Position numbers and translations under genes: made by a program
In this document: positions 17,096 to 37,653 of the stretch, one piece after another
Position numbering within the stretch: position 1 is the stretch's first letter
Layout of the letters: each line of letters begins with the position of its first letter
Notes under the pieces: generated by a model
The model's input: only the letters and a program-made list of their open reading frames with translations
The model's database searches: none
Told to the model about the DNA's origin: nothing
DNA from: a phage
Reading direction: 5' to 3' (one strand)
NCBI GenBank assembly: GCA_020619395.1
Contig: GCA_020619395.1_4860.1
DNA length: 64,000 nucleotides

Positions 17096-17117
17096 TTAAT
17101 ACTCCTTTAGATTAATG

Positions 17118-17160
17118 GTCGATTAAAATAAAACTACGGACACTCCGAAGAGTGTCCGTT
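17118..17160 (-). terminator. rho-independent terminator
   Basis: stem cggacactc/gagtgtccg with cgaa loop, T-run on minus. Confidence 0.6.
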
Positions 17161-22914: not shown

Positions 22915-23394
22915 TCATTGCACAAGGCAACTACTTTTGTGCCGTTCGTAGGCATGATTAAAAGACTCTCTGTCTTCGCGATAGCTGCGAATGAGAGACT
23001 TAATCTGTCGTGACAAATCACGACTAATGTCCTGAGGGCTACGAGAACCAGGGTCGAGATATATCCCGGAGGGTATATCATGAAGAGTGGGGCGAATAAA
23101 CTCTTCACAAAGCGGTGCGGCCATCGGGGTGCGCCACCCCTTAGCTTCTGCGTAATTGTTCAACGACTTAGCGTACAGATAAACGTAATAAGCATAAGCG
23201 TTCACATCCGCAACAAACATTTTCCCTGCCAGCTTTTTCGCCTCAGGACTGTTCCCACCAGCATAAACTGGTGGGTGTTCTAAAGGACGAAAAGGCCAAT
23301 CTCCGGTTGAGGAGTAATCTGGGTCTACGTGACGGATGACCCCAGGACATCCTGTCAACAATAGCACCAGTATCGCCACCAAAAATAACTTCAT
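22915..23394 (-). CDS. putative outer-membrane lipoprotein (o-spanin candidate)
   Basis: N-terminal signal with lipobox LLLTGC; immediately downstream of a type-II membrane protein. Confidence 0.45.
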   Translation of the reverse strand: MKLFLVAILVLLLTGCPGVIRHVDPDYSSTGDWPFRPLEHPPVYAGGNSPEAKKLAGKMFVADVNAYAYYVYLYAKSLNNYAEAKGWRTPMAAPLCEEFIRPTLHDIPSGIYLDPGSRSPQDISRDLSRQIKSLIRSYREDRESFNHAYERHKSSCLVQ

Positions 23395-23403
23395 GTATGC
23401 TCC

Positions 23404-23919
23404 TCATGGATTATTAAGCGTACTGATAATCTCCTGTCGGAAATCATTTGCCTCCTGCGACCCTACCGGGCGAGAAGCGGCCTGGTATTTCTTGGCAGGT
23501 GGGCTAGACGGATTTAACGGTGCCGGCGGTGTTACCGGCTTGAGTTCTACAGGCGGAACCGCGGCCTCAGTGCCTGTTCCTGTTGGAGATTTGGTACCAT
23601 CATATGGCGGTCGAGAACCCAGGCACGTGAAGAGACGATCGTACAACTTATTGTTCTCCACTTCGCCATGATCGGACTTCTCTTTTAGCTCCTTATAGGA
23701 TATCTCCAGATACTGAGTACGCGATTGAACGCTAACCAGTGTGTGGTATTGAACAATGTAGGCGTATGAGACAAATGCAGAGAACGCGATCAGTGCCACT
23801 ATCACTAGTGTCACTATTTTCCCGGCTCGTGTTACTTTCTCCCCCTCGCCCGGTTTAAATGCTTCCCACAGCATTTGTAAGAATGGAAGCAGTTTGAAAA
23901 CTGATGCTATCATGCTCAC
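23404..23919 (-). CDS. putative i-spanin-like membrane protein
   Basis: one hydrophobic TM segment (IVTLVIVALIAFSAFVSYAYIV), then predicted helical region and Pro-rich C-terminus. Confidence 0.4.
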   Translation of the reverse strand: MSMIASVFKLLPFLQMLWEAFKPGEGEKVTRAGKIVTLVIVALIAFSAFVSYAYIVQYHTLVSVQSRTQYLEISYKELKEKSDHGEVENNKLYDRLFTCLGSRPPYDGTKSPTGTGTEAAVPPVELKPVTPPAPLNPSSPPAKKYQAASRPVGSQEANDFRQEIISTLNNP

Positions 23920-27521: not shown

Positions 27522-28115
27522 TTACGCTTCGGCCTCAAAGAACGGCTGGTTCGGTACCACTGCATATTCGAGCACGAAAAGATGTTCTGGGGCATCTTCT
27601 GCTCGCCACAGTTTGTGGCACGTTGCCAGTTTTTCCAGGATGGTCAACCAGCTGAGCTGGCAGAAAGCACGATCGCCGAAGAACAGTTTCTGCAGTGCAA
27701 TCGACACATCCATATACGCCTGTTTGAAGTCGAGTTCTTTATCGTAACCCGCCGACTGTCGCCACGTCAGCACGAAGCCTGCTTCGGTTTCGTTAATTGC
27801 TGGACGTAAACCACAAATCCACATCAGCGCCAGATTAACGTTCCAGTCGAATTCGATACCTTCGTCTTCGTCATCACCAAACGCCGCGTTTAACGCGTCG
27901 TAGAAACCGTGGTTCTCTGCGAACCATTCGCCGTACTCAACGTAGACAGGTGCTTCGACAGCTTCCCCATCGGCTTCACCGATAGGACGCTCAACGTAGT
28001 TCGGATTGGTTTGAACGTGTTCCGCACCCGCGCGAATCAGTTCGTAAACGTCTTTGGCGGTGATTTGTGCGGCTGTTTTAAGACCTGGATACCAGGGGCG
28101 TGTTACGAGTGTCAA
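27522..28115 (-). CDS. hypothetical protein
   Basis: 197-aa ORF. Confidence 0.5.
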   Translation of the reverse strand: MTLVTRPWYPGLKTAAQITAKDVYELIRAGAEHVQTNPNYVERPIGEADGEAVEAPVYVEYGEWFAENHGFYDALNAAFGDDEDEGIEFDWNVNLALMWICGLRPAINETEAGFVLTWRQSAGYDKELDFKQAYMDVSIALQKLFFGDRAFCQLSWLTILEKLATCHKLWRAEDAPEHLFVLEYAVVPNQPFFEAEA

Positions 28116-28834
28116 AGCAATGCTCCTTTCATGATAGTGTTATTTGCCAGTAATGTACCGGCCGCAGGTGATATTTTGGTGTACAGCGTATCCCAGATTT
28201 TCTGAAGTTCGGCGACGCGTTGGTCGTGGTCTTCCTTCGCAAAAGCAAGCTGACGTGTTTCAGCTTTCGGTGGTGTCATTTTCGCACCGTAGAATGCTGC
28301 GTCTTTTCGGTAGCTGGCCATCCAGCGTTTCCCGACCGGTGATTTCTTTTTAATCATCGCAACAGCAGCACCCTCACCGAAGCGGTAGCCTAAAGCGATT
28401 TCGGCTGTGCTCGGCTTGCGTTTGAGTTGTTTTGTCAGATGATCCTCGATGTGTTTCATGTAAACGGCAGCAAGCTGTACAGCATATTTCGGTTTATTAA
28501 GGTCCGCATTCTTTGGGATGTTAAGTTGTTTCCCATACAGACGTATCATGGAGCGTTTAGTGCCTGTCGTCATTTGGACAACACTACTAGCACTGCTCGT
28601 TTTATTCTTACCCACGTTTTTATTAAAACGGGATTCACGATAAATGGTGGTCGCGAGCATCCCGGCATGTACGCCTTGTTTTCGAGATGCGGTGACGATG
28701 AGAGGTTTAATCTCATTGAACTGGTCCTGGATAAGGACGAATTCTTTTTGGTGTTTGTTACTGGTGGTCTGGTAAGAAGCGTTGCTGTTGAACGTAGTCA
28801 TTGCTACCAGAAGAAATAAAATGGTGCGAAACAT
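28112..28834 (-). CDS. secreted protein, possible SLT-like lytic transglycosylase
   Basis: N-terminal signal peptide (MFRTILFLLVAMTTFNSNA); YRESRFN...SSVVQMTTGT loosely fits the SLT catalytic E-S...Q motif. Confidence 0.4.
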   Translation of the reverse strand: MFRTILFLLVAMTTFNSNASYQTTSNKHQKEFVLIQDQFNEIKPLIVTASRKQGVHAGMLATTIYRESRFNKNVGKNKTSSASSVVQMTTGTKRSMIRLYGKQLNIPKNADLNKPKYAVQLAAVYMKHIEDHLTKQLKRKPSTAEIALGYRFGEGAAVAMIKKKSPVGKRWMASYRKDAAFYGAKMTPPKAETRQLAFAKEDHDQRVAELQKIWDTLYTKISPAAGTLLANNTIMKGALL

Positions 28835-35258: not shown

Positions 35259-35825
35259 TTACAGCCCCATATGCATAAGGGAAATGATTGGGACCTTACG
35301 GCCACGAATCATTGCATATGGTTCGTACATTTGTGCGTTAGTTTCGAATAACTCACAGGCCGGAATACGGTCACCGGTGGAAAGTTGTAAGACTTCGATT
35401 TGGTCGCCCCAGAAATTGTTTACTAATACGTGGTCGACGGTGTTGTCTTCACGACCTTCAGGGGTTTTGCAATAAGTGGCTGCGGCGTACCAACCTTTGC
35501 GGTATACTTCATAACCCGCATGAAGCATCCGATAGTACGGACGTAGCTGTGGGGCATTCAACGCAGCATCTAACCATTCGCTGTGGATGCTGTTAATCAA
35601 TACGGTTGCTTCTGCTGGCCAGTCGGTGCGATTGAGGGTTAACTCGCCTAACAACTTCAACTTCCAGCCAGTGGAAAGAATGGCACGGGTACGTTCGGGA
35701 TTGACGTTCATCTGAGTAAAGAAAGAAGAACGGGTATCGTCGAGAATGTTCATGTTCATTTGCTTAATCCTTACGAGTAATAGTCGATTAAAAAGGACCC
35801 TGCGGCTAAGTGTTGGGGAAATCAC
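35259..35825 (-). CDS. hypothetical protein
   Basis: 188-aa ORF. Confidence 0.5.
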   Translation of the reverse strand: MISPTLSRRVLFNRLLLVRIKQMNMNILDDTRSSFFTQMNVNPERTRAILSTGWKLKLLGELTLNRTDWPAEATVLINSIHSEWLDAALNAPQLRPYYRMLHAGYEVYRKGWYAAATYCKTPEGREDNTVDHVLVNNFWGDQIEVLQLSTGDRIPACELFETNAQMYEPYAMIRGRKVPIISLMHMGL

Positions 35826-35863
35826 CGCAGGGCCAAAGTGAGATGGGTCGTCATCTCACGTTA

Positions 35864-35888: not shown

Positions 35889-36272
35889 TTACTGGTCGAG
35901 CGCTACTGAACCACGCACCACCCCTTGCTGTTCAATAACCAGGAGGCGTTGTTTGGTTTTCGTATTGTAAGCGAGCGACGCGCGAAGCGTCGGGTCGCAC
36001 GTTATTGTCTCTACTGGCACAATCTCTTGTGCCTTTGAGTTCAACAGAAAGTAGTAACCTGCCGGACAAGTTTCCTCGCCCTTTGCGTGGACTAGGATGT
36101 ACTCGTCGTGCCGGCTGACTTCTTCACATCTACCATCGTCGCCAGTACAGACTTCGAACGAAGGCGGGTTGTACTGATACGGTGTACCTGGTAGTAAATC
36201 TTCTACGCTGGTTGTAGCTGAAGCAGAAGCGGTAAAGAACACCGCCACGATAATACCCATAAATCCACGCAT
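35889..36272 (-). CDS. exported Cys-containing protein (paralogue family member 1)
   Basis: signal peptide ...ASASA; motif VC-x8-C-x-V ... C-P-A-G shared with neighbours. Confidence 0.5.
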   Translation of the reverse strand: MRGFMGIIVAVFFTASASATTSVEDLLPGTPYQYNPPSFEVCTGDDGRCEEVSRHDEYILVHAKGEETCPAGYYFLLNSKAQEIVPVETITCDPTLRASLAYNTKTKQRLLVIEQQGVVRGSVALDQ

Positions 36273-36285
36273 GTTGTTTCCTTAC

Positions 36286-36696
36286 TTAAAAGTCGAGTTT
36301 ATTGATGCCTACATTTTTCTTAATCGTAGGGTCATACATGATAACCGTCAGGGCATTATCGCCTGGGTCGCGAGTAAACTCGGCAACGGCTTCACCACTG
36401 CAGGCTTGGTTATCATTATAGTTCATGGATTCGGCTTGCCCGGTTGCCATGTTAATGACCCCGTATTCAGGGTCGCCACATGCGACACCGCCCATCGTTT
36501 TCACTAAGAGATAACGGTTGTTATCGGACATCGCAACGATCTGGCAGCTACCGCCTTGTACGTCAGAGTTCTGGCACCAGAACTCTCCGCCGTATTCGTG
36601 ATCGTTAACAACTTTTGGTAACTCGATACTTCCAGCGCGAGCGAAGAAGCTAATGGCCAGAGTAGCAAGTAAAACTGGTAATAAAAAATGTTTCAT
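36286..36696 (-). CDS. exported Cys-containing protein (paralogue family member 2)
   Basis: signal peptide ...FFARA; motif FWC-x8-C-x-IV ... ACGDP. Confidence 0.5.
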   Translation of the reverse strand: MKHFLLPVLLATLAISFFARAGSIELPKVVNDHEYGGEFWCQNSDVQGGSCQIVAMSDNNRYLLVKTMGGVACGDPEYGVINMATGQAESMNYNDNQACSGEAVAEFTRDPGDNALTVIMYDPTIKKNVGINKLDF

Positions 36697-36718
36697 AATA
36701 GCACCTCAATTTTTTGAG

Positions 36719-37210
36719 TTATTCTGAATAGTCGATTGTTTTGATGGTTTCCATACCGTAGTACATAGCGATGGAGGCCAGAGTTTTGGTATCCGGTCGC
36801 TGTACAAAACCGGCCCTGAAATCTTTGCTGCAAATTTTCTCCACTGATAGTTCATCACGATTAGGGATAAGCCATAACGCGTCACCATTGTGACGGTCGA
36901 CTGCACCCCACCAACCACCTGGGCAATCTTTATCGCCCGGACGGTGTACGATAGCGACACGACCGTTGAAGGATATGTCAACTACACGACACTGTTTCTT
37001 AAGCAGCTTACGCGCATTGCACCAGAACGGCTTATCATTAAGATTGATGGTGCGGGTATATGCTGGAATGCTGCCGTTAATACTGCCCTGGAACCCGCTG
37101 AATTCGTCAGCGCGTGCCTTAGAAATCCGTAGCCCAACAACAACTGACATCAACAGCACAGTAAAAAGCACCACTTTGGCCAAGTGGCGATTAACGTTAT
37201 TGCATTTCAT
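36719..37210 (-). CDS. exported Cys-containing protein (paralogue family member 3)
   Basis: likely start at internal MKCNN (ORF track extends to 37255); signal/anchor ...SKARA; motif FWC-x8-C-x-VV ... DCPGG. Confidence 0.5.
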   Translation of the reverse strand: MKCNNVNRHLAKVVLFTVLLMSVVVGLRISKARADEFSGFQGSINGSIPAYTRTINLNDKPFWCNARKLLKKQCRVVDISFNGRVAIVHRPGDKDCPGGWWGAVDRHNGDALWLIPNRDELSVEKICSKDFRAGFVQRPDTKTLASIAMYYGMETIKTIDYSE

Positions 37211-37598
37211 TTTTGATATCTCCACGATTGAGGGTGATGCGACCGACGAGCACATCGTTGTGATAAAAGCTCACAGCAACCATATTCGGTAATTCCAGTG
37301 GTGACACACTGACCGAGGTGACTTTTGGTTGATTGCACGATATGTCAATCAACCGCTGATACATTTTCAATTTCTTATCAGCGATAACCAGCCCTGTGCA
37401 GTTCTTACCGTCCGTCAGTCTGTAGATTTGTAACTGTTCGACCTCACGCATCAGTTCCGGTTTTTCATTCGGCGCAATGCCATAATCCGAATCAGCTGAT
37501 GTGTATTCAGTCACGTCTGGCTTATCGAAAGCATAAGTTGCTGCAATACCACATGCGGCCAGAACTACTACTGCTTGTAAGAACTTCTTGATAGTCAT
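37197..37598 (-). CDS. putative lipoprotein
   Basis: N-terminal signal with lipobox VLAACG; 133 aa. Confidence 0.5.
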   Translation of the reverse strand: MTIKKFLQAVVVLAACGIAATYAFDKPDVTEYTSADSDYGIAPNEKPELMREVEQLQIYRLTDGKNCTGLVIADKKLKMYQRLIDISCNQPKVTSVSVSPLELPNMVAVSFYHNDVLVGRITLNRGDIKNEMQ

Positions 37599-37615
37599 GT
37601 TTTACTCTATAGTCG

Positions 37616-37653
37616 ATTGGTTTAAAAAAGAATAGGCTACCCGAGGGTAGCCA
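37616..37653 (-). terminator. rho-independent terminator
   Basis: stem ggctacc/ggtagcc with cgag loop; T-run on minus. Confidence 0.55.

Follow-up and report, generated by a model that had tools for sequence, protein, structure and literature searches.

Four adjacent genes of an SPN3US-like jumbo phage encode a family of predicted periplasmic proteins shared with CP4-57-type islands of Enterobacterales

A 64,000-nucleotide stretch of phage DNA (contig GCA_020619395.1_4860.1; 'the window' below means this whole stretch) carries four adjacent genes, here called A, B, C and D, whose products are predicted to be exported to the periplasm and to belong to a single superfamily of small, disulfide-held domains. 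The ~4-kb stretch around the four genes is 95–98.5% identical to the Seoulvirus Salmonella jumbo phages MET_P1_082_240, SPLA3 and SPN3US, and by its sequence the window is that of an SPN3US-like jumbo phage (Seoulvirus). Relatives of the four proteins occur on the chromosomes of Enterobacterales, where they sit in integrative islands. We are highly confident of the anatomy and the family assignment of A–D. As to function, we put the probability that they are periplasmic binders which protect the occupied cell at about 0.3.

An earlier note on this DNA, made from its letters alone, had described four adjacent minus-strand open reading frames. They lie exactly where it placed them and match annotated genes, the orthologues of SPN3US_0180 to SPN3US_0183, each of which is listed as 'hypothetical protein'. 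The start of B overlaps the end of A by 14 nucleotides (nt). All four products have full-length assignments in PHROGs, in every case to a group of unknown function: A to 9424 (3.6e-53), B to 17072 (5.1e-85), C to 8968 (3.2e-58) and D to 5248 (3.1e-44). Searches of Pfam, NCBIfam and PDB sequences with A–D gave no match above threshold, and no further paralogue was found in the window. The ratio of non-synonymous to synonymous substitution rates (dN/dS) of the four genes against SPN3US, SPAsTU and phiEaH2 is 0–0.24, and we therefore regard them as real, constrained genes under purifying selection.

On sequence evidence, B, C and D are true paralogues. The similarity between them is significant in pairwise BLASTP (B–C 9.5e-7, B–D 8.4e-6) and in hhalign comparisons restricted to the mature parts (B–C 98.2%, E 3e-14; B–D 96.4%, 1e-9; C–D 94.9%, 5e-8), which bears out the relationship that the earlier note had suspected. 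Cross-matches of the three proteins to one another's PHROGs reach 4e-8 (B to 8968), 6.6e-6 and 1e-3. Their four cysteines (C1 to C4) align in 18 sequences from six phages, with three columns invariant and the fourth offset in one sequence. The cysteine core proposed for three of the genes thus stands, whereas the fixed interval of eight residues that had been read into it does not, the spacing from C1 to C2 being 9, 9 and 6 residues in B, C and D.

The further suggestion of paralogous duplication is right as to common ancestry, but duplication in place fits poorly, since the C-type and the B-type each have nearer kin of their own in the islands of bacteria. The identity of C is 46% with the E. 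coli protein P0026 and only ~20% with B and D. With hidden Markov models of the subfamilies, P0026 (104 bits) and P0040 (98) score as C-type and P0061 (54) and P0065 (53) as B-type. The subtypes would therefore have diverged before the exchange between phages and islands, or would have been acquired separately.

Gene A showed no significant similarity to B, C or D in pairwise BLASTP. In the alignment of its own family, C67 and C88 are invariant and are the only two conserved cysteines. When larger alignments of the A family and the B/C/D family are compared, hhalign yields 63% (E 6.9e-5) over 75 columns, with both A cysteines placed on C3 and C4 and the final strands likewise aligned. We place A in the family because of this E value and of reciprocal structure matches (template modelling (TM) scores of 0.5–0.6), and conclude, partly from predicted models, that all four genes form one superfamily in which A would have lost the first disulfide loop. 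The earlier note had seen a shared core in three of the four genes. These three are indeed related, and A belongs with them as a distant member that has their fold but only two cysteines.

The AlphaFold model of C has a mean predicted local distance difference test (pLDDT) value of 94 and a predicted TM score (pTM) of 0.87; for the AlphaFold (AF2) model of A the values are 85 and 0.78. Both models contain seven strands in identical order. Compared with a library of predicted viral structures, the model of C retrieved its own family first and then two proteins of 125–126 amino acids (TM 0.53–0.55). The same two proteins are the top matches of the A model (TM 0.80–0.83, 34–36% identity) and are on that account assigned to the A family. 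This model next matches models of the C/D type (TM 0.50–0.61), before anything unrelated. Taken as predictions, the models strongly support a compact domain of ~110 residues whose seven strands resemble two blades of a β-propeller. As in the propellers of WD40, PD40 and TolB, the modelled domain consists of four-stranded antiparallel blades. It has, however, two blades only rather than a closed ring of four or more, and appears to be stapled by disulfides. The WD40 and PD40 models of Pfam match neither A–D nor the other family members, and the match of the A profile to designed WD40 repeats is weak and arises only from the sum of identical repeats, single repeats scoring E >200 each.

The cysteines behave as pairs. 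Across A, B/C/D and the E. coli lipoprotein YfjS, to which we return below, C1 and C2 are present or absent jointly and C3 and C4 are always jointly present; A and YfjS are without C1 and C2 and retain C3 and C4. Loss of cysteines only in pairs fits consecutive periplasmic disulfides, and from this pattern we infer C1–C2 and C3–C4 bonds in B, C and D and a C3–C4 bond alone in A.

All four proteins share the same N-terminal layout, which comprises a positive n-region, an uncharged hydrophobic core of 15–16 residues and an AXA-type (small-x-small) site. Signal peptides were called by a heuristic of our own and by their conservation in orthologues. The signal features persist in Erskinevirus, Machinavirus and Wellingtonvirus orthologues of 25–60% identity, although the signal sequences themselves differ. 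A crude signal scan of 76 non-overlapping open reading frames of the window gave ~9 strong scores, which include those of the four adjacent genes. The signal peptide that the earlier note had assigned to each gene is thus upheld as a prediction by the heuristic and by its retention in diverged orthologues, and export of A–D via Sec is well supported at that level.

The lipobox LAAC, which had been read as a feature of A, fared differently and was rejected as a conserved feature once the orthologues were aligned. LAAC is found only in the closest relatives (this phage and SPN3US). At its position other A orthologues have LATC, LAFL, IAVC, AAVC or no cysteine, whereas all of them keep an AXA-type site downstream. 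Because the lipobox varies while the AXA-type site is kept, we read A as a signal-peptidase-I substrate in which LAAC is probably unused. In B, C and D there is an AXA-type site but no lipobox. A better lipoprotein candidate in the window is the open reading frame at 22915–23394 (minus strand, 159 amino acids), whose start, MKLFLVAILVLLLTGC, is a lipobox of canonical form; Pfam gave no match for it, and its product might be part of a spanin.

Because of the hairpins that flank the four genes and the motif found upstream of them, we see A–D as a unit with a phage-specific promoter or regulatory element (Table 1). That they form one terminator-bracketed, self-contained transcription unit is strongly supported by these sequence features. 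The exact 10-mer AATCGACTAT has three copies in the window, all inside one 1.9 kb. Copy 2 could in part be a by-product of coding for the conserved C-terminal I-D-Y. The variant AATCGAC[TC][ATG]T is kept upstream of the A orthologues in SPN3US, SPAsTU and phiEaH2, and the motif is likewise kept before the gp184 orthologue in SPN3US, SPAsTU, phiEaH2, Caitlin and Wellington, so that its positions are conserved across four phage genera despite differing intergenic flanks. It typically stands just after terminator-like hairpins and 10–31 nt before the start codons of non-virion genes; two further instances of the order hairpin, motif, ATG precede other non-virion genes. AATCGAC[TC][ATG]T probably represents a class of promoters or regulatory elements in these jumbo phages. 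Further sites that fit it lie at 17115–17124 of the window (minus strand) and at position 23831 (plus strand) of the SPN3US sequence L025.

Table 1. The four-gene unit and its flanking elements. Coordinates are those of the window; signal peptides and cleavage sites (↓) are predicted.
Feature	Coordinates	Strand	Description
Terminator-like hairpin with T-run	37635–37652	minus	37 nt before A, ends the upstream unit; –14.3 kcal/mol, z –5.4
AATCGACTAT, copy 1	37609–37618	minus	10 nt upstream of the A ATG; putative phage promoter or regulatory element
Gene A	37197–37598	minus	gp180 orthologue, 133 amino acids; signal peptide 1–23, site TYA↓F; mature part ~110 amino acids; cysteines C67, C88
Gene B	36719–37210	minus	gp181 orthologue, 163 amino acids from the annotated MKCNN start; signal peptide 1–34, site ARA↓DEF; cysteines in the mature part at residues 64, 74, 96, 127
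AATCGACTAT, copy 2	36728–36737	minus	within the final codons of B, 31 nt before the C ATG
Gene C	36286–36696	minus	gp182 orthologue, 136 amino acids; signal peptide 1–21, site ARA↓GS; cysteines 41, 51, 73, 99
Gene D	35889–36272	minus	gp183 orthologue, 127 amino acids; signal peptide 1–19, site ASA↓TT; cysteines 42, 49, 69, 92
Terminator-like hairpin, 11-bp stem, large loop, T-run	35796–35834	minus	3' of D; –21 kcal/mol, z –4.3
AATCGACTAT, copy 3	35780–35789	minus	directly after the downstream hairpin, 20 nt before the gp184 orthologue
Next gene, gp184 orthologue	35259–35759		copy 3 of AATCGACTAT marks the start of its unit

Among phages, tblastn located A and C in the same 64 genomes, all of this clade (jumbo phages of Salmonella, Erwinia, Escherichia and Proteus). 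The cassette is syntenic among them and lies a few genes from an SbcC-like gene. It holds A and three further copies in Seoulvirus, Erskinevirus and Wellingtonvirus, and A and two in Machinavirus. Several of the related phages have an extra open reading frame of 79–97 amino acids (MELxxxxxxGxxVxRYRVIxCS...) without a signal peptide just upstream of A (L004 1333–1572, L009 1345–1584, L006 1761–2006, L005 1806–2099, L008 1809–2048), which this window and SPN3US are without. In a number of SPFM genomes (e.g. LR535901, LR535905 and LR535907), the orthologues of A and C fall into 4–7 tblastn pieces with odd 'proteins' of 81–148 amino acids. These fragments look like assembly frameshift errors rather than real variants, and the fragmented SPFM sequences were excluded from the alignments.

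When 1.84 billion representative proteins were searched exhaustively with a profile, just 35 clusters came up at E ≤1e-3, phage proteins included. Chromosomal family proteins among them are P0026, P0040 and P0054 of E. coli and P0056 of Edwardsiella tarda, and the P0061 lineage counts 1037 members, spread over Klebsiella, Enterobacter, Citrobacter and E. coli. Of 5426 complete E. coli genomes, 78 carry a gene like that of P0026, on the chromosome every time. Homologues are also found in Klebsiella, Enterobacter, Citrobacter, Kluyvera and Edwardsiella, the B-type P0061/P0065 proteins in the first three of these, and the family is rare on plasmids. The metagenomic subtypes P0059 and P0042 were searched for in IMG/VR and not found. 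Confinement of the family to SPN3US-like jumbo phages and CP4-57-type islands of Enterobacterales is strongly supported by these sequence searches.

The bacterial genes share a setting. We compared seven island loci, two in E. coli and five from four other Enterobacterales species. In all seven, a YfjP-like GTPase is followed by a YfjR-like regulator with helix-turn-helix and WYL domains, the family member, and a second secreted protein that is either YfjT-like or 312 amino acids long. The order then continues with DUF932, an antirestriction protein, RadC/JAB, DUF987 and CbeA/CbtA. By gene content, this is the backbone of integrative islands of the CP4-57/CP4-6 type. The bacterial members of the P0026 and P0061 lineages directly follow the WYL regulator, which is the position of YfjS, a likeness of place that applies to the bacterial homologues only. 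In CP4-57 of E. coli K-12 the equivalent position reads ypjK-yfjS-yfjT, yfjS encoding an inner-membrane lipoprotein.

Two other genes of these islands deserve mention. Upstream of the GTPase gene, several loci carry an OLD-family AAA/TOPRIM ATPase and a UvrD-like helicase, a Gabija-like pair (L010 85–4004; L017 1986–5574; L022 1898–5949). The 312-amino-acid secreted protein stands next after the family member in L010 (10476–11414; E. coli ABMWUE010000003.1) and in L012 (9585–10415; E. coli O157:H7). Its C-terminal domain is of the same family (hhalign with the D profile, E 9e-4), and its N-terminal part has a C-x4-C-G loop and a sub-threshold match to Ivy (PF08816, E 0.0074, 16.9 bits where the cutoff is 21). 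A PDB sequence search on the Ivy-like segment gave no support for the Ivy link.

The shared position raises the relationship to YfjS and YafY, encoded by the cryptic prophages CP4-57 and CP4-6 of E. coli K-12. YfjS itself scores 228.6 bits against the Pfam family PF20494 (YfjS_YafY), whose gathering score is 27 bits. A–D gave no match to this model at E ≤1, and formal membership, which was considered, fails because no match rises above the gathering score. The likeness lies elsewhere. Both groups have an exported domain of ~110 residues with a C3...C4 pair and a common C-terminal strand of the form 'G-x-x-x-G-R/S-h-x-h', and the bacterial family members fill the yfjS slot after YfjR and before a YfjT-like protein and DUF932. 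The differences are that YfjS and YafY are inner-membrane lipoproteins (an LSAC lipobox followed by Asp) without the C1–C2 loop, whereas B, C and D have no lipobox. The profiles of A, B and C showed no significant hhalign match to YfjS; the YfjS side of this comparison is narrow, as the plasmid-borne copies are all 90–95% identical. On balance we regard a relationship to YfjS/YafY, no closer than superfamily level, as likely from sequence and gene order. YafY is described as an inner-membrane lipoprotein whose function is unknown; when overproduced it activates Cpx, and its deletion gave no phenotype in the study concerned (PMC6538781).

We propose the following course of events for A–D. The four proteins would be co-transcribed and exported via Sec; cleavage by signal peptidase I would free them in the periplasm of the infected cell, an oxidising compartment in which each would fold into a compact disulfide-held domain. 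There they may act as non-enzymatic binders, either of a component of the Enterobacterales envelope or of the apparatus with which an incoming phage or element enters. The occupied cell would gain protection from such binding, in the form of superinfection or entry exclusion or of related envelope protection, and the several diverged copies could cover different targets or act as an oligomer. A binder role is proposed because the domain has no catalytic signature and its fold is typical of binding modules.

We prefer protection of the occupied cell at the envelope, by exclusion or by a block of an incoming particle's means of entry, because the family is confined to one phage clade and to integrative islands, because its bacterial members lie behind a WYL regulator among genes of conflict between mobile elements and hosts, and because of the analogy with known exclusion factors. 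T4 Sp (Spackle) and Imm, T5 Llp, TraT and TrbK are small periplasmic proteins or lipoproteins that act in exclusion, and WYL regulators of the BrxR/CapW type are commonly placed in front of defence modules. By analogy, A–D resemble these exclusion factors in being small, borne by mobile elements and, as predicted, exported to the envelope, but they show no sequence, profile or fold similarity to them. The signals and the cysteine pairs predict for A–D the location that an exclusion protein has, the envelope of the occupied cell.

Several observations weigh against this proposal. Export of the four proteins is itself a prediction. Searches of the family against Pfam, PHROGs, NCBIfam and PADLOC matched no known exclusion or defence protein. 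The divergence of A, C and D is no greater than that of their cytoplasmic neighbours, B being the exception; C and D are 58–62% identical to their phiEaH2 counterparts as against 43–44% for gp184 and gp185, and this slower divergence leaves no arms-race signature. The tie to YfjS stays below threshold, with three of 29 family members matching PF20494 (best E 0.12) and the D profile reaching YfjS in hhalign with 66.8% (E 5.3e-5) over 90 columns, the whole domain, with C3 and C4 aligned. In the literature searched, yfjS, yfjT and ypjK appear in lists only, and in what was found for YfjS and YafY there is no function beyond Cpx induction on overproduction. The SPN3US literature searched, together with the supplement of PMC5105663, makes no mention of gp180–183.

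Other functions have to be weighed against protection of the occupied cell. At 8 kb from the unit, the same phage encodes an SLT-domain protein with a signal peptide (28112–28834, minus strand, 240 amino acids; signal-like N-terminus MFRTILFLLVAMTTFNSNA↓SYQ; PF01464, E 2.8e-6), a candidate exported endolysin. An exported enzyme would need periplasmic control, and A–D might bind and restrain the lytic transglycosylase that the phage itself exports, those of the host, or tail enzymes resembling lysozyme; they would thereby fix when lysis occurs or guard against lysis from without. Ivy, PliC and T4 Spackle are models for such a role. Like A–D, the inhibitors Ivy, PliC/MliC and PliG of Gram-negative bacteria are small, exported via Sec and have loops bounded by disulfides, but none of them matches A–D by family model or fold. 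The 312-amino-acid neighbour in the E. coli islands, which joins a C-terminal domain of the family to a weakly Ivy-like N-terminal segment, would speak for enzyme control, were it not that the Ivy match is below threshold and unsupported by the PDB sequence search. No SLT gene is present among the examined neighbours in the islands that carry homologues, and we consider this explanation unlikely.

Signalling offers another route, in which A–D would engage a Cpx or Rcs sensor or a component of lipoprotein trafficking and reprogramme the envelope (e.g. capsule, proteases) during the long cycle of a jumbo phage. The family is confined to Enterobacterales, as is the Rcs sensor RcsF. YafY, the probable relative, and NlpE are the only two E. 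coli lipoproteins that activate Cpx when overproduced, but the deletion of yafY was without phenotype in that study (PMC6538781). Moreover, an overproduced inner-membrane lipoprotein may induce Cpx in an unspecific way, the phage proteins are predicted to be soluble and without a lipid anchor, and the homology to YafY/YfjS is only moderately supported, so that we find a signalling role rather improbable. We give no better odds to a lectin-like function, in which two-blade units would close into a propeller that binds lipopolysaccharide, enterobacterial common antigen or the glycan of peptidoglycan. Two-blade bacterial lectins form propellers of such a kind, the length of the domain corresponds to two blades, and the A profile has its weak, repeat-summed match to WD40; a sugar-binding motif was looked for in A–D, however, and none was identified. 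A more elaborate version, which we hold to be very improbable, has the four genes supplying one hetero-oligomeric eight-bladed 'split propeller' in the periplasm. It fits because of the blade count, the co-transcription and the shared fold, but copy number differs between related phages, from A plus two to A plus three or four. Phages and islands with fewer copies could use homo-oligomers, and the ring might imitate or block a host propeller protein such as TolB or BamB, or attach to glycans of the envelope. If true, it would be the first function for the YfjS/YafY branch of the E. coli y-ome. Finally, the LAAC of A in this phage, the overlap of A and B and the long hydrophobic N-terminus of B recall a pair of spanins, with A as lipoprotein o-spanin and B as membrane-anchored i-spanin. 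We rejected this reading, to which we attach almost no weight, on account of the fold, the cleavage sites and the kinship of both proteins with C and D. In most A orthologues the lipobox either lacks its cysteine or departs from the canonical form and is followed by an AXA-type site, B keeps a conserved AXA cleavage site, and both proteins are modelled as all-β globular homologues of C and D rather than as coiled-coil or proline-rich proteins. The gene order is also the reverse of the usual i-spanin then o-spanin, and homologues are carried by bacterial islands without a lysis cassette. What probability the proposed protection of the occupied cell and these alternatives leave over goes to functions that we do not name.

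What was already known of A–D is that databases list them as hypothetical proteins and as PHROGs of unknown function. New are the union of four PHROGs, which that database keeps separate, into one superfamily; a confidently predicted fold with its disulfide logic; the operon structure with its conserved upstream motif; and the link of the family to CP4-57-type islands and, probably, to YfjS/YafY. The present result is a clean description of a family and its fold.

Lytic jumbo phages of the phiKZ/SPN3US type have been studied mostly for their activities in the cytoplasm, among them the phage nucleus and RNA polymerases of their own, and little for what they do to the host envelope. Here a whole clade of jumbo phages invests in a conserved, separately transcribed set of predicted periplasmic proteins. 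The same small family is common to CP4-57-type islands of E. coli, Klebsiella and relatives, at the slot that the lipoprotein YfjS holds in K-12. A function, if found, be it in exclusion, in the control of cell-wall enzymes or in stress signalling, would explain four PHROG families, hypothetical proteins of bacteria that number between several hundred and a few thousand, and probably also two y-ome genes of E. coli K-12.

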